DNA from: an uncultured bacterium
GTDB lineage: Bacteria > Schekmanbacteria > GWA2-38-11 > J061
NCBI GenBank assembly: GCA_964549305.1
Contig: CAZJVM010000079.1
Span: 1-10,774, forward strand
Length of the DNA: 10,774 nucleotides
Direction of reading: 5' to 3'
Shown here: in pieces, positions 769-10,470 of the stretch
How positions within the stretch are numbered: the first letter of the stretch is position 1
How the letters are laid out: every line of letters starts with the position of its first letter
Program-made: the position numbers and the translations under genes
Notes under the pieces: generated by a model
Databases searched by the model: none
What the model was told of the DNA's origin: nothing
The model's input: only the letters and a program-made list of their open reading frames with translations

Positions 769-2004
769 ATGAAGAAAAATATATGTTTTTTAATTATTAT
801 ACTTTTTGCCATATTTGTTTCGTTTTCTTCCTATGCGGAAACACCTCCTGAACTATTCCACGACAAAGATACTCCGGGCTTTTCAGCGGAAAGAAAAGCG
901 TATCACTCCGATGCCATAAAAAAAGTTTCCGTTGATTTTTCATTAATCAATCCTGAAGGCAGTCGTTCAAGAAGAATAATTGCTGACCTGCCGGACAAAA
1001 GCGTAACCCTCGAAATGACAAATATCTCATCTGACGGTAACGGGAATTATTCGTGGTTCGGCAAGGTTGAAGGCAAAAAATTATCGAGCGTTGTTTTCTC
1101 GGTAACCGACGGAAAATTATTCGGAGATATAAGCGTTGACGGTGAATCCTACGCGGTGGAACCTTCGGGAAAGAGTTACCGAATCGTCAGGGAAGATTTA
1201 GAAAAAATGAACCCCCTTTGCGACTCTCCCCTTATTCCTCCCGCAACTCATATCTCTACAGAAGAAATATCCCCCCGCAAAAGCTACAGGGACAGCGGGA
1301 ATGAAATCGATGTACTCGTTTTATATACTAAATCTCTTAAGAAAAAATACAAATCCAAGCTCAATGGATTGGTGAAACATTACGCGGATATTGCCAATCA
1401 GGCATATGCCAACAGCAACATCAACCTGAAACTGAATATAACCGCTACGGAAGCTTTCTATGACGATGGAACAAAGGAAAAAGCGAACAGCACTTCCGAT
1501 GCCCTCACGTATATTACAGAGAATGCGACTGTAAAGTCGCTCAGAAAATCCTATAAAGCGGATTTAATCTGCCTGATGAGAAAATTCAGAAAAAAAGGAA
1601 AATCCCCCTGCGGTACGGGTTGGCTTTTAACCAGCGCGGACAAAACATTTTCCCCATACGCTTATTCAGTAGTCGAAGTCAGGAAACCCTCGGGCAGAGG
1701 ATATTACTGTGACAAAAGGACATTTGCCCACGAGATAGGGCATAATCTCGGATGCGCTCACGACAGGGCACACGCTTCGGAACAAGGAGCTTATGAATAT
1801 TCCTACGGATACAAAAAGAAGGGAAAGTTTAGCACAATTATGAGTTATGGTTCGCACAGGATTACATACTTCTCCACTCCCATTGAAACATACAGGAACA
1901 AAGTCATCGGTAAGGATATAAACGAAAATAAGCCTGCCTACAACGCCCTTACCATTGAGCAGACAAAAGATGCCGTCGCTAACTTCAAAAAAAGCGGAAA
2001 TTAA
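769..2004 (+). CDS. Secreted metzincin zinc metallopeptidase (M12B/reprolysin-like) with pro-domain
   Basis: Signal peptide ending ...SSYA. Extended zinc motif HEIGHNLGCAHD (HExxHxxGxxH, 1729-1764) and Met-turn STIMSY. The catalytic domain begins at IDVLVLYT, with YKADLICL and CGTGWL as in bacterial reprolysin-like proteases. Confidence 0.9.
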   Translation: MKKNICFLIIILFAIFVSFSSYAETPPELFHDKDTPGFSAERKAYHSDAIKKVSVDFSLINPEGSRSRRIIADLPDKSVTLEMTNISSDGNGNYSWFGKVEGKKLSSVVFSVTDGKLFGDISVDGESYAVEPSGKSYRIVREDLEKMNPLCDSPLIPPATHISTEEISPRKSYRDSGNEIDVLVLYTKSLKKKYKSKLNGLVKHYADIANQAYANSNINLKLNITATEAFYDDGTKEKANSTSDALTYITENATVKSLRKSYKADLICLMRKFRKKGKSPCGTGWLLTSADKTFSPYAYSVVEVRKPSGRGYYCDKRTFAHEIGHNLGCAHDRAHASEQGAYEYSYGYKKKGKFSTIMSYGSHRITYFSTPIETYRNKVIGKDINENKPAYNALTIEQTKDAVANFKKSGN

Positions 2005-2036
2005 ATTACGGGAACATTAGTTTAAGAGTACATTGT

Positions 2037-3098
2037 TTATTTGACTATGTCTTTTATCTTTTCCCCCTTATCTTCGGAAAATGCACCTTCGCCTTTGAAA
2101 AGAACATTCCCTTTATTATCAACAAGCAATACATATATGGTCTGCTCGTTTTCTACTCCCAATGCCCTGTTAAATGGCGCCTTATCTATATAGAGAGTGA
2201 TTGTCGCCTCTCTTGCCTTAACATCCTGTATCCCGGAACGCATAGCGTAATTGATGTACCACTGATAGAGAATATTGAGGTTTTCTATAGTTGGAAGCTC
2301 ATAATATTTCAACTTATCGTTATTCGCGGAAAGCGTTTTCGCGAAAGGTAACCAGGTATCCACAAGTTGCTGTTGCTCACGATAATAAGCAATAAAAAGA
2401 AGGTTGAATTCTCCTTCAAAATCACCGGGCAATTTATATTTTTTACCTTCAAGATTTGCCCCGGCAACTTCTGGAAAAATGTAATTCAATTTGGTCTCTT
2501 TATTTTTTTCTCCGAAAGTTGAAATACTCTTAAGCTCAAGAGAAAATTGCCCCTCCTGTTTGTCGGAAATAAGGAAACCCATAGCGCTAATCTTTTTTAC
2601 ATCCAGTTTCGGAGCATCATTTAAAACCTGTCCTCTGAAAGTGGGTATAAAATCCGCGAAAGGAATTTTAACAGTCATCCAATTCCCCCTCTCGGTTAAA
2701 AAAACTGTCTGATAAAGGGTAGTGTCGCGATTATCATCGTTTTTCATATAGAATTTATACTTATTTCCGTCTCCCTTAATTCTCAATTCCACACCTTCAT
2801 AACCGCTCAAGTCATATGAATTTTCTTCATTTATAACGGAGGCAAAACCTCCATAATTATCAAGAGATATATTCCCTGAAAAAACCGCGTTTCTCTCTTT
2901 CGTCATTCCAAAAGTGCTTCTCGATACTCCTCCCATAACTGTATCGTCAACATTTACCCAACCATCCGCATTGCCTGATTTTTCAAAATCTAAAAGAAGA
3001 CTGCTTTTATATTCCATGCTCATTGCAATTCCTCCGTATGTTAATATAAAAATCAGAAATGATGCTGAAATGAATACTCTTATAATCTGATTTATCAT
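2037..3098 (-). CDS. CIA30 (complex I intermediate-associated protein 30)-domain protein fused to a C-terminal ATP10-like thioredoxin-fold domain, with N-terminal signal/TM segment
   Basis: CIA30 motifs WVNVDDTVMGGVS, FSGNISLDNYGGFAS, IKGDGNKYKF, IPFADFIPTFRG, ISDKQEGQFSLE. The C-terminal domain FPEVAGANLEG..LPGDF..VDTW..YYELP..MRSGI..YVLLVDNKGNVLFKGEG resembles bacterial ATP10-like proteins. RBS AGGAG 3110-3106 fits ATG 3098 (the ORF track starts at TTG 3101). An alternative start exists at 3023. Confidence 0.8.
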   Translation of the reverse strand: MINQIIRVFISASFLIFILTYGGIAMSMEYKSSLLLDFEKSGNADGWVNVDDTVMGGVSRSTFGMTKERNAVFSGNISLDNYGGFASVINEENSYDLSGYEGVELRIKGDGNKYKFYMKNDDNRDTTLYQTVFLTERGNWMTVKIPFADFIPTFRGQVLNDAPKLDVKKISAMGFLISDKQEGQFSLELKSISTFGEKNKETKLNYIFPEVAGANLEGKKYKLPGDFEGEFNLLFIAYYREQQQLVDTWLPFAKTLSANNDKLKYYELPTIENLNILYQWYINYAMRSGIQDVKAREATITLYIDKAPFNRALGVENEQTIYVLLVDNKGNVLFKGEGAFSEDKGEKIKDIVK

Positions 3099-3195
3099 CA
3101 ATGAACTCCTCTTTTATTATTAATTACTCTCTTTATTAAATAAAAAATATATTAAAAATACACAAATTAATCATATTTATTCTGTTTTAACTCAT

Positions 3196-3225
3196 AAAAA
3201 ATGCCGGATTAACTTGGACCGGTAT
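3196..3225 (-). terminator. Possible weak intrinsic terminator after the methyltransferase gene
   Basis: Minus strand reads ATACCGG-TCCAAGTTAAT-CCGGCAT-TTTTT directly after the stop codon. The stem is short and imperfect. Confidence 0.3.
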
Positions 3226-4068
3226 TTACCTTGCCGCTAAAGTAAAATCCGTAACAGGAGAATTGATTGCTTCTATTGCTTCCTTGTCGCAGGTATGTAT
3301 GAATGAAAAGTGTTTTGACAGGAATTTTTCTGCTTCGCTGAGTGTCAGAAAATTTGCTCCGATTTTCTCAAATATTATATCATATGCTTCTTTTTTACCG
3401 GTGATGTTAAGGTCTTCTACCATTAATAATATGTCAGCAAGAGGTGCTATAGTATCAATACCTTCAAGTCCGGTATATGGGATGCAGAAACGCTCAAAGA
3501 GAAAAACCGGTTTTTTCAGTTTTTGAAACATCTCCCGCGGAACCTCTTTTCTGAAATCCCATTGAAAATCTGATATATCAAACTCAGGATATTTTCCCCT
3601 GAGCATTGCTCCTGTTTCGCTGATTTGAGGTATCTTGTCAGAAATTATTACAGGAACCTCTATTTCTTTCCTTCTCATTTCATCACATATACCGGTGGTG
3701 ACATGTCCTAAACCTGCTCCCACTTCAACAAGCGTTCCGATTTCATATTTGTCTAAAACAGAAGAAACAACATCCATCGTGCCGTCTGCAAATATTTTAT
3801 AAATATCGCTTTCTGCAACCTCTCTGTAAAGATTCTGTATCTCCGGTTTTGACCAGTCCCACTCTTCCTCTTCCATCACAGCAACCATAAATTTTACTAT
3901 AGGAACAAAAATGTCAGGGACTTCATTTTTTTTCACGTCTTCCCCTGCAAGAAGTTTTTCAGATGAGGTAAGGAGAGGTTTCCAATCGCAAAAAGCTTTT
4001 TTTGCCTTATCGCAATACCGCGTCATCGGTGCTTCGATAGCTTCAAGCAATTCATCACGATTAATCAT
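3226..4068 (-). CDS. Class I SAM-dependent methyltransferase-like protein, substrate unknown
   Basis: Motif I-like LVEVGAGLG, acidic residue ending strand 2 (VIISD), FQWDF, LFERFCIPY. AGGGGG at 4080-4075 abuts the ORF-track ATG 4074 and lies 6 nt from ATG 4068, so 4068 is preferred. It starts about 20 nt after the oxoprolinase B stop. Confidence 0.65.
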   Translation of the reverse strand: MINRDELLEAIEAPMTRYCDKAKKAFCDWKPLLTSSEKLLAGEDVKKNEVPDIFVPIVKFMVAVMEEEEWDWSKPEIQNLYREVAESDIYKIFADGTMDVVSSVLDKYEIGTLVEVGAGLGHVTTGICDEMRRKEIEVPVIISDKIPQISETGAMLRGKYPEFDISDFQWDFRKEVPREMFQKLKKPVFLFERFCIPYTGLEGIDTIAPLADILLMVEDLNITGKKEAYDIIFEKIGANFLTLSEAEKFLSKHFSFIHTCDKEAIEAINSPVTDFTLAAR

Positions 4069-4088
4069 ATTCATCCCCCTGTTAATGT

Positions 4089-5663
4089 TTAATCACCGGC
4101 GCTGCCAAATCCCCCTCCGCCGGGAGTTTCGATTCGAAGCACATCGCCTTTTTTTACTCTGTCATAGAATTTGCCGCTTTTATCAATTTCTTCACCTTCG
4201 CGAATAATTGTATTCTTTCCGCATTTGCCTTTCTCTCCACCGTCCAAACCGTATGGCGCGTATTTTCTTCGCTCTGAAATCACAGTCACTTCGGCATCGG
4301 ACAAGAATTCAATTTCTCTTACAATACCGTCGCCTCCGCGGTATTTCCCCTTGCCTCCTGAATCTTTCCTGATGCTGTAGCGCCTCACAATGACCGGGTA
4401 GGAATATTCCATTGCCTCTATGGGAGTGTTTAGAGTGTTTGTCATATGCGACTGCACCGCTGACGCGCCGTTGCCTTCTTTGAACGCGCCCATTCCGCCG
4501 CCGACTGTTTCATAGTAGGTGAAGGTTTTTCCCCTGCGCTCATCGACTCCGCCTATTGCCGTATTATTCATCGTACCCTGCGCCCCTGCGCATATTTCAC
4601 CTGGCATCGCTTTGGAAAGCGCGCCTAAAATCACATCCACTATCCTCTGTGATGTCTCAACATTGCCTCCTGCCACTGCCGACGGAAATTGAGCATCGAC
4701 TATGCACCCCCTCTCCGTTACGAGATTTATCACCTTCATAAGACCCGCGTTTGTAGGCGCGTCTTCAGGCATAAGGCATCTCACCGCGTAAATGAGCGCA
4801 GACAGTGTTATCGCTTTTACAGCGTTTACAGACCCCTTCACCTGCGCCGCGCTACCGGTAAAGTCGGCAGTCAGGCAGTCGCCTTCCACGGTAATCACCG
4901 CCTTTAACTTTATCGATTCCGTACCGACACCGTCATCGTCGAGGAAATCATCGAATTCATAAACGCCGTCTGGTATTCGGCTTATTGTTTTTCGGGCAAT
5001 TTTCTCCGTATAATTCTGAAGCGCGGAAGCGTAAAAGAGCGTTTCCTCTCTTCCGTATTTATCCGCTGTGTCGCGCAACCTCTTTACCCCCGTAAGGTTT
5101 GCCATTATCTGCGCGCTGAAATCCCCCCTGCGCTCTTCCGATGTACGCACATTGCTCGTAATGAGTCTCAACACGCTCTCATCAATTTTATCTTCACGCA
5201 CGAGCAACAGAGGCGGGATTATAACTCCTTCCTGAAATATGGATGTGGATATTGGCATTGATCCGGAAGCCATACCTCCCATATCTGCGTGATGCGCGCG
5301 GTTTGCCACATAGAAATCCGCTTCTTCGCCATCACCGCAGAAAACCGGGGCAACAACCGTTACATCGGGAAGATGCGTTCCCCCCCGAAAAGGATCATTT
5401 ACAACTGCCATGGCACCACGGGACACAGGACATTCTTTGAGGACCGATTTAACGGACAACGGCATCGAGCCCAAATGCACCGGTATGTGCGCCGCCTGTG
5501 AAACCATATCACCCTTTTTATCGAATATGGCGCAAGAATAATCGCGCCTTTCCTTTATATTAGGTGAAAACGAAGTGCGCCTCAGCGTTGACCCCATTTC
5601 TTCAGAAATCGAAGACAACCTGTTTTTAAACACTTCAAGCAGTATGGGATTTACATCAGTCAT
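4089..5663 (-). CDS. hyuB: Hydantoinase B / 5-oxoprolinase family subunit
   Basis: SPNIKERRDYSCA, AHIPVHLGSM, NDPFRGGTHLPD, NRAHHADMGG, GGNVETSQR, MTNTLNTPIEAME, C-terminal TPGGGGFG. Its start overlaps the A-subunit stop by 1 nt (TAATG). Confidence 0.93.
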   Translation of the reverse strand: MTDVNPILLEVFKNRLSSISEEMGSTLRRTSFSPNIKERRDYSCAIFDKKGDMVSQAAHIPVHLGSMPLSVKSVLKECPVSRGAMAVVNDPFRGGTHLPDVTVVAPVFCGDGEEADFYVANRAHHADMGGMASGSMPISTSIFQEGVIIPPLLLVREDKIDESVLRLITSNVRTSEERRGDFSAQIMANLTGVKRLRDTADKYGREETLFYASALQNYTEKIARKTISRIPDGVYEFDDFLDDDGVGTESIKLKAVITVEGDCLTADFTGSAAQVKGSVNAVKAITLSALIYAVRCLMPEDAPTNAGLMKVINLVTERGCIVDAQFPSAVAGGNVETSQRIVDVILGALSKAMPGEICAGAQGTMNNTAIGGVDERRGKTFTYYETVGGGMGAFKEGNGASAVQSHMTNTLNTPIEAMEYSYPVIVRRYSIRKDSGGKGKYRGGDGIVREIEFLSDAEVTVISERRKYAPYGLDGGEKGKCGKNTIIREGEEIDKSGKFYDRVKKGDVLRIETPGGGGFGSAGD

Positions 5664-7639
5664 TATATCCTTTCAATTATAACATTATATTCATCATCTA
5701 TTCCGGCTTTCCATCGCGGCGGAATAAATGTGGTTGCGCTGTATTCAACTATAACCGCGGGGCCTTCTAAATTGTTTTCGGGCAGTAATTTTTCACGGTC
5801 ATAAAATTTCGCGTTCATCTTCCGCGACTCATAAAATATTTCACCTTCGCCAATCAGAGAAATTCCCTTTTCATTATTTTTCACCTTTCCGCTCACAGGC
5901 GCGCTTTCTCTTTTGCCGGACACCCTCAATCTTAAATTCACTATTTCACAAGGCACACCGCTGTGACTGTATCCGTACAAACGTTTATGAAGCGAATGAA
6001 AACGTTTCACATAATCATCGCTGAAGGGAACGACAATTTCGTAAGACTGCCCCTCAAAACGCATATCAACATATTTTTTAAAAGTGAGTTTCTCTTCCTT
6101 AAAACCCTCCTTAGCCATTTCAACACCACCCCTTTGGCAAAGAGGAGAAAATCTGTTTTCAATATCATTGAAGGAGGTAGCATTTTCTTTGAGCATTACA
6201 GTAATCGAATAATCCTTTACAACATCTGCCTTGAGCATCCCCACAGCCGACAAAAGCCCCGGTGCATATGGTATGATTACACCTTTCATTGAAAGATTAC
6301 CGGCAAGGGCAACTGCGTGGAGTCCGCCTGCGCCTCCGAATGACACAATAGAAAATTCGCGAAGGTCATATCCTCTCTCGATGGATATTACACGTACCGC
6401 TTTTTCCATTTCTGCATTTGCCACTTCAACTATTCCTTCGGCAAGCGTGAAGGGGTCGATTCCGGATTCAGACGATAATTTTCCGATAGCTCTTTGCGCC
6501 CTTTCCGGGTAAAGCTTCATTTTTCCGCCGAGGAAATAATCCGGCGAGAGACGTCCGAGAAAAAGATTCGCGTCTGTTACGGTTGCCCTGTTTCCTTTGC
6601 CGTAACAGGCAGGACCCGGGTCCGCGCCCGCGCTTTCAGGCCCGACTCTCAGAGCGCCTCCTCCGTCAATCCTCGCAATAGAACCACCTCCCGCGCCAAC
6701 AGTGTGGATGTCTATCATAGGTACTTTTACAGGCATACCGGCAATAGCAGATTCGGTAACTATTGACATATCTCCGTCAACAAGGGAAACATCCGTTGAA
6801 GTGCCTCCCATATCGAAGGTTATAATTTTATTCTTTCCGGCCTTTTTTGCTACATCCAAAGCCCCCACGACACCGCCTGCAGGCCCTGAGAGTATTGTCC
6901 TTGCAGATTCATCCATTGCCGTATCCGCCGATATACTTCCGCCGTTTGACTGCATTATTCTCAGTAAATCATCTTCGGAGAGGTTGCTCTTGAGAAATGA
7001 AATGTATTTCTTCATCACGGGCGACACATAGGCATTCACGACTGTAGTGGAAGTTCTTTCATATTCTCTGAATTCCGGAATAATGCGGTGCGAGGCAGAA
7101 ACAAAAAGCCCTCTTCTTTCGCATTCCTCTTCCACAAGCTTTTCGTGTTTCGGATTTATAAAGGAATAAAGAAAGCAGACTGCGACAGATTCAGCGCCCT
7201 TTTCTACTGCTTCTGCAACAACTGCTTTTATCTCTTCATTATGGGGAGACTTCAATACTTCTCCGTCGCAGAGGACTCTCTCCTCAAGGGACAGTCTTCG
7301 CTCCCGCGTAATGAGAGGTGCATCTTTTTTATATTTAAGGTTGTAAAGCTCTTTTCTTTGTTGTCTTCCTATTTCTATAACATCTTCGAACCCGCCTGTT
7401 GTTATGAGCGCGGTAACGGCGCCCTTTCTCTCGAGCAGCGCGTTGGTGGCAACAGTTGAGCCGTGAATGACGGTTTTTCTTTTTTCCATCGATATTGCAT
7501 CGAGGCCTCCGCATACGGCTTCCGCGGGATTTGAGGGCGTTGAAAGTATTTTAAATGTTTTGAGTTTCCCTTCGTCCATATAGACGAAATCGGTGAATGT
7601 GCCTCCCGTATCCACGCCGACTAATATATGGTCTTTCAT
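5663..7639 (-). CDS. hyuA: Hydantoinase A / 5-oxoprolinase family subunit (ATP-binding)
   Basis: GVDTGGTFTD, HGSTVATNALLER, EFREYERTSTT, LSGPAGG, DMGGTSTDV, GAGGGSIA, GPESAGADPGPACYG, GGAGGLHA. GAGGGAG RBS-like sequence upstream. Confidence 0.93.
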   Translation of the reverse strand: MKDHILVGVDTGGTFTDFVYMDEGKLKTFKILSTPSNPAEAVCGGLDAISMEKRKTVIHGSTVATNALLERKGAVTALITTGGFEDVIEIGRQQRKELYNLKYKKDAPLITRERRLSLEERVLCDGEVLKSPHNEEIKAVVAEAVEKGAESVAVCFLYSFINPKHEKLVEEECERRGLFVSASHRIIPEFREYERTSTTVVNAYVSPVMKKYISFLKSNLSEDDLLRIMQSNGGSISADTAMDESARTILSGPAGGVVGALDVAKKAGKNKIITFDMGGTSTDVSLVDGDMSIVTESAIAGMPVKVPMIDIHTVGAGGGSIARIDGGGALRVGPESAGADPGPACYGKGNRATVTDANLFLGRLSPDYFLGGKMKLYPERAQRAIGKLSSESGIDPFTLAEGIVEVANAEMEKAVRVISIERGYDLREFSIVSFGGAGGLHAVALAGNLSMKGVIIPYAPGLLSAVGMLKADVVKDYSITVMLKENATSFNDIENRFSPLCQRGGVEMAKEGFKEEKLTFKKYVDMRFEGQSYEIVVPFSDDYVKRFHSLHKRLYGYSHSGVPCEIVNLRLRVSGKRESAPVSGKVKNNEKGISLIGEGEIFYESRKMNAKFYDREKLLPENNLEGPAVIVEYSATTFIPPRWKAGIDDEYNVIIERI

Positions 7640-7743
7640 TACAACTCACTCCCTCTATCTTAAAATTAAACATACCATTTTTAGATGAAATAATTTATAT
7701 AATTTGAATAAATATCAATGGCGCTTATCAGGAGGGTAAATGA
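7640..7743. promoter_or_regulatory. AT-rich divergent promoter region shared by hyuA-like and hemF-like genes
   Basis: 104-bp gap between head-to-head genes. TATAAT at 7698-7703 (+) with no clear -35. RBS AGGAGG at 7730-7735. Confidence 0.5.
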
Positions 7744-8508
7744 ATGTCCAAAATTAAGGAAGTTGATAGTTTCTTTGAAGAGCTTACAAACCGCGCGCTC
7801 GGAGAATTCGCAAAGATCGACCCTATGGGAATCACAACAAAAAGAAAATGGGATACCGAACTGGGACTTATGGAAGTGCGCCTTTTTATGGGCGAGGTTT
7901 TCGAAAAAGCGGGCGTAAGTTACTCCGCTCTGAAAATTAAACTTCCCAACACGGATACCGGGGCGGATGTGCGCGTTTTTGAAATTCTCACCTATATGGC
8001 AAATCCCAAAGTGCCCACTCTTGCAATAAGTTTGAGATACAGAGCAAACGGAGGCGAAAAATTTATGGGTCTTTGCGATATATCCCCTTCCATCGCTATT
8101 GACGAAGACCTTGATTATTTCGGACAGGCAATGAAAGGGCTTTGCGAAAAACACGGCAAAAAATACGATGATATGCTCAAGCGTCTCAATTATCTTTTCA
8201 CTTCAAAATACACCGGCAAAACCGTACTTGGCGGAAGAGGAATCGCTTTTGACCTCGAAGATGACGGATTTGATTTCTTCAAAGAGTTTGGAGAGCTATT
8301 CCTCGACACATCGCTTGAAATTATCAAAAGAAGAAAGGACGAAGAATTCACACTTCAGGATAAGGACAAACAACTTCACGACAGAGGAAAATGGGTTGAA
8401 TTCAATCTTACGGAAGACAAGGGGTTTATTTTGGGTGTAAAAGTAGGCATACCGCCCGAGGCAATGAATTATCAGACACTGCCTCCGGTAGCAAAATTTT
8501 ATCCGTAG
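7744..8508 (+). CDS. Divergent HemF-like protein (oxygen-dependent coproporphyrinogen III oxidase fold); canonical activity doubtful
   Basis: Collinear HemF signatures: GEVFEKAGVSYS, NPKVPT...LRY, DISP, IIKRRKDEEFT, QLHDRGKWVEFNLTEDKG, TLPPVAKF. Many normally invariant residues are substituted. RBS AGGAGG lies 8 nt upstream. Confidence 0.8.
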   Translation: MSKIKEVDSFFEELTNRALGEFAKIDPMGITTKRKWDTELGLMEVRLFMGEVFEKAGVSYSALKIKLPNTDTGADVRVFEILTYMANPKVPTLAISLRYRANGGEKFMGLCDISPSIAIDEDLDYFGQAMKGLCEKHGKKYDDMLKRLNYLFTSKYTGKTVLGGRGIAFDLEDDGFDFFKEFGELFLDTSLEIIKRRKDEEFTLQDKDKQLHDRGKWVEFNLTEDKGFILGVKVGIPPEAMNYQTLPPVAKFYP

Positions 8509-8683: not shown

Positions 8684-8713
8684 TTGACATCATCCTTATT
8701 ACTTTTTTATAGT
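8684..8713 (+). promoter_or_regulatory. Sigma70-type promoter for the flavin reductase-like pair
   Basis: TTGACA (8684-8689), 18-nt spacer, TATAGT (8708-8713). RBS TAAGGAG at 8731-8737 precedes ATG 8745. Confidence 0.65.
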
Positions 8714-8744: not shown

Positions 8745-9617
8745 ATGTCCCACAAATTTGAAGAGATCAGAATTCTTGATAATTTTTACCAGACTTCAAG
8801 CTTCTTTCCTATGCCTGTTATGCTCATAAGCACTATTTCCGAATCGGGAGAAACCAACCTTGGTCCCTACTCTCTCTGTTTTCCAAAAATAATCACAGGC
8901 GGCAAGGGACACGCGATGCTCTTAATATCGCGCGGTACAAGCAACACCGCGCAGAACATTTTAAGGACAAAAGTATGCTCCCTGAATTTTATTCCCGACA
9001 AGAAAAAATATCTTAAAAACTGCGTTATGCTCGGTTTTCCCGGTGAAACTACAGAAGATAAGATGAAAAACAGTATCTTTACATTGTTACCTTCTACGAA
9101 AAAGTCTGATTCGAAAGATGCCCCCAATAACGGAAAATTCCCTGATATAGTAAAGGAGGCGTTTCAGGTCTTCGAATGCACCTGGGACGATTCATACCCC
9201 CTTAAACATAATGATGAGCTTGTGGAATCACATTTTCTTCTTCGCATAGACAAGATTCTGCTCAGGAAGAAATGGAAAGATTCACTCTTCAAGGGCAAGG
9301 GTTTTCCGCGCATACCAATTGATTACGGTTACAGGGATAATGTGAGATTTTGGTTTACAAGACATTCACAACCATTTGCCGTGCCTGTGCCACAGGACAA
9401 AGAAAACGCCGTTGAAGTTGTAAAATATGCCTGCGACCGTTTTGACCCTGATATTAAATGGGAGGACGATGCCTGCGCGAAGATAGTCAAGGTGCCGAAC
9501 ATTTTCCTGAAAAAAGTAATCGGAGGTGTAGTAAAAGCGGCGCGCGAAGAAGGTGTCACTGTTATAACTCCTGAATTTATGGACAAGATTCAGGATAAAA
9601 GGTCATCAGACAAGTAA
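8745..9617 (+). CDS. Flavin reductase-like (DIM6/NTAB, FMN-binding split barrel) protein with C-terminal PCP_red-like domain
   Basis: PMPVMLISTISESGETNLGPYS, SNTAQNILRTKVCSLNF, IVKEAFQVFEC. The C-terminal IKWEDDACAKIVKVPNIFLKKV..AAREEGVTVITPEFM (about 9450-9600) matches the W-x2/3-A-x3-h-x-K-h-P...G-x3-IT pattern of the BchB/ChlB C-terminal domain. Confidence 0.78.
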   Translation: MSHKFEEIRILDNFYQTSSFFPMPVMLISTISESGETNLGPYSLCFPKIITGGKGHAMLLISRGTSNTAQNILRTKVCSLNFIPDKKKYLKNCVMLGFPGETTEDKMKNSIFTLLPSTKKSDSKDAPNNGKFPDIVKEAFQVFECTWDDSYPLKHNDELVESHFLLRIDKILLRKKWKDSLFKGKGFPRIPIDYGYRDNVRFWFTRHSQPFAVPVPQDKENAVEVVKYACDRFDPDIKWEDDACAKIVKVPNIFLKKVIGGVVKAAREEGVTVITPEFMDKIQDKRSSDK

Positions 9618-9645
9618 AGGCAAACAATATTTCAAGAGGTTGAAA

Positions 9646-10470
9646 ATGAAAAAAATAGTTCCTATCAAACCCTTCTGGTATTCCGATGTAGTCGTGTTTC
9701 CAAAGATGATAACTATAATCACCACTATAGACAAGGAAGGCAAAGTCAATGCTGCGCCCTATTCCTTCTTTATGCAGTACGATGTTATGAATAAGAATCC
9801 ACGCGTTATTGTTGGAATGAGAAAATTCACTCACACTTATAAAAATATAGAAGCAACAGGAGAGTTTGTAGTAAATTTCCCTACTGCCGACTATCTCGAG
9901 GATATGATGGAAACCTGCCGTTTCTATCCCGAAGGAGTTAATGAGCTTGAACATACTCGCTTTACTGAAATACCATCACAGAAGGTAAAACCGCCGAGCA
10001 TCAAGGAGTGCGGGCAAATTATCGAGTGTTCCCTTGACCGGCAATATACTCTCGATAAAACGCAGGGACAGGTCATCGGAAAGATTGAGGCAATCGTGAT
10101 GGATGAGGAATTAATAGATTTGAGGCGCGATGAGCGTTTCAGAAAACTTAACCTTCCCATAGGGTTGGGAGACGAAAAGAGAAAATATTTTTATTACGGG
10201 CACATCGGGGATATCGAGATGATTAAGCTGAAAGCACCGCCAAAGGAAGATGAGTTTAAAGGAGAGCTTAAAACCACGATGAATTGGGATAAGGAAGCGC
10301 TCGACGGAGTCCGTCAAATCCCCTCTGCCATACAGGAAATGGTCATAGAGATGACTGAAGACATAGTTCAAAAAGAAGGTGCCGAAAACGTTACAAACGA
10401 AAGGTTTCAAAAACTTATCGAAGAATACGCGCCACCTGATATGCTCGACCGATTTGATAAGGATGAGTAA
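9646..10470 (+). CDS. Flavin reductase-like (DIM6/NTAB) protein with C-terminal PCP_red-like domain; paralogue of the upstream gene
   Basis: PKMITIITTIDKEGKVNAAPYSFF, HTYKNIEATGEFVVNFP, PSQKVKPPSIKEC..IEC. C-terminal MNWDKEALDGVRQIPSAIQEMV..EGAENVTNERF (from 10279). RBS AGAGGT 9635-9640 favours ATG 9646 over the ORF-track TTG 9640. Confidence 0.85.
   Translation: MKKIVPIKPFWYSDVVVFPKMITIITTIDKEGKVNAAPYSFFMQYDVMNKNPRVIVGMRKFTHTYKNIEATGEFVVNFPTADYLEDMMETCRFYPEGVNELEHTRFTEIPSQKVKPPSIKECGQIIECSLDRQYTLDKTQGQVIGKIEAIVMDEELIDLRRDERFRKLNLPIGLGDEKRKYFYYGHIGDIEMIKLKAPPKEDEFKGELKTTMNWDKEALDGVRQIPSAIQEMVIEMTEDIVQKEGAENVTNERFQKLIEEYAPPDMLDRFDKDE

Follow-up and report, generated by a model that had tools for sequence, protein, structure and literature searches.

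The stretch of DNA analysed here (the window) is 10,774 nucleotides long and covers positions 1 to 10,774 of contig CAZJVM010000079.1 in assembly GCA_964549305.1, from an uncultured bacterium of the Schekmanbacteria. What can be stated firmly is that one of its genes encodes a 254-amino-acid protein with a conserved HemF fold, a rebuilt pocket, and a place in a clade outside canonical HemF, the coproporphyrinogen oxidase (CPO; CPOX in human). No described enzyme accounts for this HemF-like protein, which represents a variant in an already known fold family. A function other than CPO is likely, because the pocket is rebuilt, the clade is non-canonical, and half of the residues on which the human enzyme depends are gone. 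A more specific reading, in which it is not a CPO but a cytoplasmic protein that binds or processes a tetrapyrrole in connection with uptake, is offered tentatively. The gene and its ribosome-binding site are as follows.

7744 to 8508, forward strand: HemF-like coding sequence (protein P0001), ATG start, 254 amino acids, no internal stops, no signal peptide
7730 to 7735, forward strand: Shine-Dalgarno sequence AGGAGG, 8 nucleotides 5' of the ATG, read directly from the sequence

The open reading frame (ORF) at 7744 to 8508 is intact, with 254 codons and no internal stop. This agrees with an earlier note on this DNA, made from the sequence alone, which had claimed an intact ORF with a strong ribosome-binding site. 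The sole Pfam family of the protein is PF01218 (Coprogen_oxidas), with an E value of 3.9e-28 and a score of 98.4 bits against a gathering threshold of 31.8 bits. The match spans residues 7 to 252 and profile positions 2 to 270 of 295, and no second family appears even at a relaxed threshold of E 10. Canonical HemFs from the search for relatives score 300 to 477 bits against the same profile, compared with 98 for this protein. With the NCBIfam HemF equivalog model (NF003727), the protein reaches 114.6 bits against a cut-off of 297 and fails membership.

An AlphaFold model of the protein, built on 15 relatives, has a mean pLDDT of 92.2 and a pTM of 0.90. HemF structures occupy the top Foldseek ranks (TM 0.81 to 0.88), followed by bilin reductases and red chlorophyll catabolite reductase (RCCR) at E values of about 1e-4. 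In VIA-align, the model matches full-length HemFs with Z values of 27.5 to 32.4 over 243 to 248 residues, at a root-mean-square deviation of 1.7 to 2.3 Å and 26 to 29% identity, so that the likeness to canonical HemF covers nearly the whole chain. Z values of 13 to 21 are found for PebA, PebB, HY2, PcyA, PebS, PcyX, RCCR, and two chloroplast motor-complex chains. After this group the list falls to Z of about 6, and no other structure exceeds Z 7. The named enzymes among the solved relatives all act on tetrapyrroles. As modelled, the protein has the HemF fold; with this fold and a score above the gathering threshold, it is a member of PF01218 at the fold level, beyond a chance match.

Relatives were collected in several searches. 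An exhaustive HMMER scan of 1.84 billion representatives returned 538 matches at E<=1e-3; 67 of these reach <=1e-10, and just 3 reach <=1e-30. A word-indexed search gave 17 relatives, namely one identical sequence, nine at 64 to 81% identity, three at 39%, and four at 30 to 33%. The 10 orthologues referred to below share 64 to 81% identity. A true orthologue is present in one other genome of those examined (G004, 67% identity). The ESM Atlas returned only clusters named coproporphyrinogen oxidase, and a scan of genome contigs returned one locus, of a paralogue type at 41%.

A tree was built from 167 proteins and the nine PF01218-like paralogues of the genome that contains the window. Keeping lengths of 235 to 340 amino acids left 109 rows, and dropping 13 rows with less than 85% query coverage left 96; P0001 and P0002 were omitted as duplicates of the window protein. 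The tree is a quick IQ-TREE search with SH-aLRT support and no bootstrap. The 59 canonical rows form one clade with an SH-aLRT of 100 and a stem length of 1.33. All of the other 37 rows lie across this long stem and are short forms without the canonical motifs. The window protein is among these 37 rows and outside the canonical clade. It falls within a 10-row clade (support 100), where its nearest neighbours are the C3, C30, and C25 types (paralogues are named by their contigs) from the same genome.

The window genome is 2.94 Mb in 169 contigs and is rated 100% complete. Its nine PF01218-like ORFs are intact and 252 to 328 amino acids long. Seven are over the Pfam cut-off and two are just under it, and none of the nine approaches a canonical-level PF01218 score. 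Mapping the label "own genome" onto the tree takes nine changes, with every paralogue beside a different database sequence. Because each has a separate database partner, the nine paralogues are old subfamilies and not a recent burst. Five genomes of the phylum contain 9, 6, 7, 4, and 2 PF01218-like matches. Pocket positions vary between the HemF-like subfamilies; scaffold residues and the two pocket aspartates (Asp112 and Asp225 in the window protein) are widely retained. Paralogues C8, C82, and C66 have hydrophobic, signal-peptide-like N-termini, judged by eye. Longer canonical relatives in the database are SpoU, URO-D, or RNase H fusions or have transit-like extensions. In the N-terminal regions of two longer non-canonical relatives (P0023 and P0117), no family was recognised.

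The pocket was compared by residue-by-residue alignment to solved HemFs, of which Klebsiella HemF (8t7w) was the best match at 60 bits. In this alignment HPRNPYVPTSHANVRF becomes TYMANPKVPTLAISLRY in the 254-residue protein. Other same-site changes are GGGFDLTP to MGLCDISP, WDRGTLFG to EDKGFILG, and GGRTES to GIPPEA. The earlier note had listed motif substitutions against E. coli HemF; with solved structures and database HemFs as the reference instead, the substitutions are reproduced motif by motif. Its claim that the N-terminal GGGG loop is lost is borne out by the alignment. The protein is about 45 residues shorter than canonical HemF and lacks both this loop and the C-terminal extension, and it keeps the C-terminal LPP motif.

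Human CPOX numbering was anchored on a mammal-like database representative (P0108), and 19 of 19 residue names quoted in a preprint on the human enzyme match the computed positions. Retained residues are Arg262 (here Arg98), Asp282 (Asp112), Arg389 (Arg214), Asp400 (Asp225), Gly402 (Gly227), and Gly406 (Gly231). Replaced residues are Ser244 (Glu80), His258 (Ala94), Asn260 (Ser96), His327 (Tyr156), Arg328 (Thr157), Arg332 (Val161), Arg391 (Lys216), Arg401 (Lys226), Arg413 (Pro237), and Ser416 (Ala240). The loss of several propionate-binding arginines that the earlier note described is correct for the equivalents of Arg328, Arg332, and Arg413, which are now Thr, Val, and Pro. Arg391 and Arg401 are now Lys, and Arg262 and Arg389 are kept. 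All 10 orthologues have Glu80, Ala94, and Ser96, and 6 of them have Val161. The arginine replacements in this subfamily are less uniform among the orthologues than the three fixed changes.

A deep mutational scan of human CPOX reports that His258, Ser244, Asn260, Asp282, Arg332, and Gly406 are intolerant of change, and describes Asp400 and Gly402 as critical (bioRxiv 10.64898/2026.07.02.735896). Four of these eight positions are replaced in the 254-residue protein and four are kept. Judged by the catalytic His258 together with Ser244, Asn260, and Arg332, the protein falls outside HemF; judged by the equivalents of Asp282, Asp400, Arg262, Gly402, and Gly406, it falls inside. At the 59 positions with at least 80% conservation across the 59 canonical rows, the HemF-like subfamily keeps 29 residues and alters 30. 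Sixteen of the 30 altered positions are fixed in at least 9 of the 10 orthologues.

The 10 orthologues share 96 invariant columns out of 254, and the substituted pocket residues are included. In a 15-row alignment of closer relatives (A2), Glu80, Ser96, Arg98, Asp112, Asp225, Gly227, and Gly231 are invariant. The sole pair with unsaturated synonymous sites, G004 and the metagenome locus L031 (95% amino acid identity), gives a dN/dS of 0.055. The remaining five orthologue pairs have pN of about 0.2 and pS of about 0.83 to 0.87, where dS is saturated. The gene is under strong purifying selection and, with this dN/dS, is not decaying. The earlier note had preferred a new function over decay and had reasoned that relaxed selection would leave the substituted residues unconserved in close homologues. 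Its preference is supported by the 10 of 10 conservation of Glu80, Ala94, and Ser96, the dN/dS value, and the distinct non-canonical clade.

A literature search found HemF2 as the only described non-canonical HemF, and no account of the present non-canonical clade. HemF2 belongs to the tolyporphin cluster and decarboxylates rings C and D of protoporphyrinogen IX (PMC10548856). As described in that source, it is a HemF-family protein with moderate similarity to HemF, an altered substrate pocket, and a different tetrapyrrole job. By analogy, and likened by description only, HemF2 would be the closest functional precedent for the 254-residue protein. It differs in that HemF2 is still an oxidative decarboxylase, from an aerobic cyanobacterium, whereas the window protein has lost the catalytic His.

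The ferredoxin-dependent bilin reductases (FDBRs) and RCCR (PebA 2x9o, PebB 6qx6, HY2 6kme, PcyA 2d1e, and RCCR 2zxk) share an alpha/beta/alpha sandwich with the protein over 170 to 228 residues, and all bind tetrapyrroles on the sheet face. The earlier note had suggested that the protein may bridge the HemF and FDBR families, and this suggestion fails at the sequence level. Fe_bilin_red (PF05996) and RCC_reductase (PF06405) give no match to the protein even at E<=10, and a sequence relationship is undetectable. An hhalign comparison of the window subfamily with the genome's own FDBR-like protein has a probability of 0.16% and an E value of 0.36. Profiles of the window subfamily, the distant non-canonical subfamilies, and canonical HemF are equally insignificant against that protein (probability <=0.3%, E 0.2 to 0.36). 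The structural similarity is strong, yet the fold common to CPOX, FDBR, and RCCR is already published and covers canonical CPOX too, so it is not special to this protein (PMC10151467). The same source reports that Schekmanbacteria FDBR-like sequences group with the RCCR outgroup.

The ligand of the protein is probably a tetrapyrrole. We infer this class because every characterised enzyme of the fold acts on a tetrapyrrole, because the two aspartates thought to contact pyrrole nitrogens are retained, and because FDBR-like and BchB-domain genes adjoin paralogues. In the window genome, the C9 type lies directly 3' of a sulfite-reductase-like Fe-S gene and an FDBR/RCCR-like gene. Three of the five ORFs with a PCP_red (BchB C-terminal) domain are within two genes of a HemF-like gene. 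The bound tetrapyrrole would have free pyrrole N-H groups and, as the loss of several arginines suggests, fewer carboxylates than coproporphyrinogen has. Candidate ligands would be a porphyrin, a bilin, or a corrinoid, among which the data do not discriminate. Whether the protein acts as an enzyme or as a carrier is about evenly balanced.

A link to uptake falls a little short of an even chance. In G004 and L031, the HemF-like orthologue begins 29 nucleotides 3' of a TonB-dependent receptor gene. At L032 (a 67% orthologue), the same strand carries a receptor gene of 49% identity, 1.1 kb upstream of the orthologue. Receptor proximity is thus seen in both other lineages with usable flanks. In the window genome, the first gene of a cluster with an exported HemF-like paralogue encodes a receptor with 40% identity to that of G004. 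The same genome contains eight matches to one TonB-dependent receptor family, at 43 to 66% identity to the G004 receptor. These loci are as follows.

C8, 30492 to 39392 (L012, 1993 to 10893): TonB-dependent receptor, 603-amino-acid protein without a family, DUF169 plus PCP_red protein, exported HemF-like protein, metallo-beta-lactamase-fold protein, DUF362 protein
Contigs C112, C56, C130, C92, C7 (two), C8, and C10: receptor-family matches, several on short contigs or at contig ends

HemS/ChuS/PhuS and HugZ/HutZ are cytoplasmic haem-handling proteins of TonB-dependent haem uptake loci. The orthologue loci resemble those systems in position only: the gene for a cytoplasmic protein directly follows that for an outer-membrane TonB-dependent receptor. 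The folds of those proteins are unrelated to that of the 254-residue protein.

The earlier note had also proposed to check the host haem route, and neither HemN nor the AhbAB domain is recognised in the window genome. The one HemN_C-domain protein scores above the HemW cut-off (308 against 205) and below that for HemN (154 against 325). The best ferrochelatase candidate scores 27 bits against a cut-off of 124.6, and the best HemY candidate 67.6 against 97.85. ChdC, the AhbAB domain, haem oxygenase, and cytochrome bd have zero matches in the genome, and canonical HemF is absent from it as well. Three hemE-like (URO-D) proteins are all below the equivalog cut-off (277, 233, and 229 against 303). 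ALAD (490 bits), a COX1-family oxidase, a di-haem cytochrome c peroxidase, and HemW are present. No known late haem route is recognisable in this genome rated 100% complete, though in a draft assembly absence is never certain. The genome is rich in ferredoxin-linked tungsten enzymes.

Taken with the receptor linkage in both other lineages and the exported paralogue in a receptor cluster, the missing haem pathway suggests handling of an imported tetrapyrrole. The HemF-like protein would be the cytoplasmic acceptor or processor of a tetrapyrrole that enters through a TonB-dependent receptor. Such a role would fit an organism apparently unable to make haem by the known late pathways.

Several observations weigh against this reading. 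The window locus itself has no receptor; it is flanked by two flavin-reductase-like genes (listed below) and by a divergent hydantoinase pair, separated from the HemF-like gene by 104 nucleotides.

4089 to 7639, reverse strand: hydantoinase B and hydantoinase A pair (caprolactamase/oxoprolinase-like), with a 1-base overlap at 5663

The receptor link comes from two independent lineages only, since G004 and L031 are 95% identical. In the window genome, the other seven receptor-family matches share no contig with any HemF-like gene, and in the three of those seven with flanks examined, no gene of HemF-like size adjoins the receptor. When the receptor cargo was sought with NCBIfam, the siderophore, haem, and B12 receptor models all scored far below cut-off. 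The COX1-family oxidase leaves room for oxygen-dependent chemistry. The neighbours of other subfamilies, namely tungsten aldehyde:ferredoxin oxidoreductase (AFOR), UbiD, a QueG-like protein, and a radical-SAM and GT9 pair, give no obvious pointer to a tetrapyrrole. The AFOR, UbiD, and GT9 contexts count against a purely tetrapyrrole story and keep a non-tetrapyrrole ligand in play.

In that alternative the ligand would be a non-tetrapyrrole aromatic carboxylic acid, and the protein would take part in an anaerobic acid and aldehyde metabolism run by AFOR, UbiD, and aldo-keto reductases. Its evidence is the neighbourhood of three other subfamilies (contigs C30, C25, and C66), which adjoin AFOR genes. 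Two of the AFOR pairings recur in G004, one of them with an aldo-keto reductase. The C30 type lies directly after AFOR in the window genome, and in four other loci (L017, L035, L037, and L040) it is beside universal stress proteins. The C66 type adjoins AFOR in both the window genome and G004, with UbiD alongside in the window genome. In G004, UbiD and a major facilitator superfamily (MFS) transporter lie 3 to 6 kb upstream of the HemF-like orthologue. The C25 type is the first gene of a four-gene operon that is found in two genera.

C25, 31219 to 35447 (L011, 8220 to 12448): HemF-like protein, QueG/reductive-dehalogenase-like protein (Fer4_16 plus HEAT), 2x[4Fe-4S] ferredoxin, AFOR
G004 C1 (L041, 2825 to 7103): the same four-gene operon, HemF-like gene first

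Against an aromatic acid stand the solved relatives above Z 13, since all those whose enzymatic function is known act on tetrapyrroles, and the two retained aspartates proposed in HemF to contact pyrrole nitrogens. In addition, one paralogue comes directly after an FDBR-like gene, and two paralogues have PCP_red-domain genes as neighbours. This alternative is considered unlikely.

Slightly less likely still is a working, atypical oxidative decarboxylase of the coproporphyrinogen or protoporphyrinogen type, which would fill the missing haem step or act on other propionates as HemF2 does. The genome has no other candidate for the step (HemW only, and no canonical HemF), and the three hemE-like URO-D paralogues are present, if below their equivalog cut-off. 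The equivalents of Asp282, Asp400, Arg262, Gly402, and Gly406 are retained, the COX1-family oxidase suggests some oxygen exposure, and HemF2 offers a precedent (PMC10548856). However, the equivalents of His258, Ser244, Asn260, and Arg332, all reported as change-intolerant in the human scan, are gone, and the first three replacements are fixed. Downstream enzymes (HemY/PgoX, ferrochelatase, and ChdC) are undetected in the genome. Nine paralogues with differing pockets, three of them signal-peptide-like by eye, are ill-suited to one housekeeping step.

A broader proposal, of comparably low probability, takes the nine HemF-like subfamilies as oxygen-independent members of the CPOX/FDBR/RCCR fold, at least some of which, with the three off-threshold UroD-like proteins, would make up a previously undescribed late pathway or salvage route for tetrapyrroles in an organism without the known late haem enzymes. 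The characterised members of the fold (CPOX, the bilin reductases, and RCCR) all act on tetrapyrroles and depend on oxygen directly or indirectly. One published proposal is that the fold diversified after the appearance of oxygenic photosynthesis or oxygen (PMC10151467). Should the oxygen-independent pathway exist, the fold did not arise only after oxygen, contrary to that proposal as worded in the source. In this bacterium, where haem proteins and an expanded receptor family occur without any recognisable late haem pathway, the HemF fold has diverged into nine or more old subfamilies. Oxygen-independent binding or conversion of tetrapyrroles by these proteins, if it takes place, would supply a missing piece in the picture of how such organisms acquire or remodel haem-like cofactors, and would alter the account of how the fold evolved.

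The genes downstream of the HemF-like gene bear on a further alternative. Within the window they are arranged as follows.

8684 to 8713, forward strand: sigma-70-like promoter, TTGACA, 18-nucleotide spacer, TATAGT (an 11 of 12 consensus match only)
8745 to 9617, forward strand: 290-amino-acid protein with a weak flavin-reductase-like split barrel and a C-terminal PCP_red domain (Flavin_Reduct 16.6 bits and PCP_red 24.4 bits, both below cut-off)
9640 to 10470, forward strand: 276-amino-acid protein with a flavoredoxin-type FMN split barrel and a C-terminal PCP_red domain

In this alternative, which takes up the reductase idea of the earlier note, the HemF-like protein would be an oxygen-independent tetrapyrrole reductase resembling the bilin reductases, with Glu80 and Asp112 as proton donors and electrons from the flavoredoxin/PCP_red neighbours. 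Glu80, the new invariant acid in place of Ser244, lies on the sheet next to the retained Asp112, and the fold is shared with the FDBRs (Z 18 to 21). In a local profile match that is not significant, the D-x-x-P strand end of the HemF-like proteins lines up with that of the genome's FDBR-like protein. In each of the two genera with the orthologue, the flavoredoxin-type gene is found no more than 8 kb from the HemF-like gene. In G004, a 71% orthologue of the 276-residue protein is 7.3 kb upstream of the HemF-like gene, with UbiD, the MFS transporter, a pilin gene, and the receptor in between. The idea is nevertheless improbable, and a little more so than the decarboxylase. There is no significant sequence link to the FDBRs. 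The flavoredoxin/PCP_red family has 534 matches (at least 120 at 54 to 87% identity), compared with 17 for the HemF-like protein, which argues against a dedicated partner, and its genes are probably under their own promoter.

A dedicated partnership with the downstream flavin-reductase genes was rejected as a firm claim, as their family is widespread and is conserved without the HemF-like subfamily. It is also weakened by the probable separate promoter. The spacer between the HemF-like gene and the 290-residue gene is 236 nucleotides long and holds this near-consensus site, which suggests that the genes 3' of it may have their own transcript. The 290-residue protein is a possible, uncertain functional neighbour of the HemF-like protein. 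A predicted complex of P0001 with the 276-residue protein scored 0.00 in a run without controls and counts neither way.

Decay of a functionless hemF copy under relaxed selection, for which the many lost canonical residues might speak, is refuted by the conservation data (intact ORF with a Shine-Dalgarno sequence, dN/dS of 0.055, 96 of 254 invariant columns, and pLDDT of 92).

Several neighbouring genes deserve a description in their own right. The 290- and 276-residue proteins are paralogous, at 22% identity, and the N-terminal domain of the latter matches FMN-binding proteins and flavoredoxins. Its flavoredoxin/PCP_red family has no assigned function; 120 of the 534 matches are listed, at 54 to 87% identity and across phyla, and some of those listed are named as metagenome-assembled genomes of Delta- or Gammaproteobacteria. 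Elsewhere in the genome, the C3 type comes after genes for a radical-SAM protein and a GT9 glycosyltransferase, an unexpected partner set for a HemF-fold protein, and this order is kept in two genera.

L010, 8352 to 11231: radical-SAM gene, GT9 glycosyltransferase gene, HemF-like gene (C3 type)
G004 C17 (L042, 4227 to 7147): the same three genes in the same order

The remaining features of the window lie on the far side of the hydantoinase pair.

3226 to 4074, reverse strand: ORF of 282 amino acids with no Pfam or NCBIfam family match
2037 to 3101, reverse strand: 354-amino-acid protein with a CIA30 domain (175 bits) and a weak ATP10-like region

CIA30 and ATP10 are better known from mitochondrial assembly factors. 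The GC content of the window climbs from 0.34 to 0.37 (positions 2000 to 4000) to 0.50 to 0.52 (positions 4000 to 5500).

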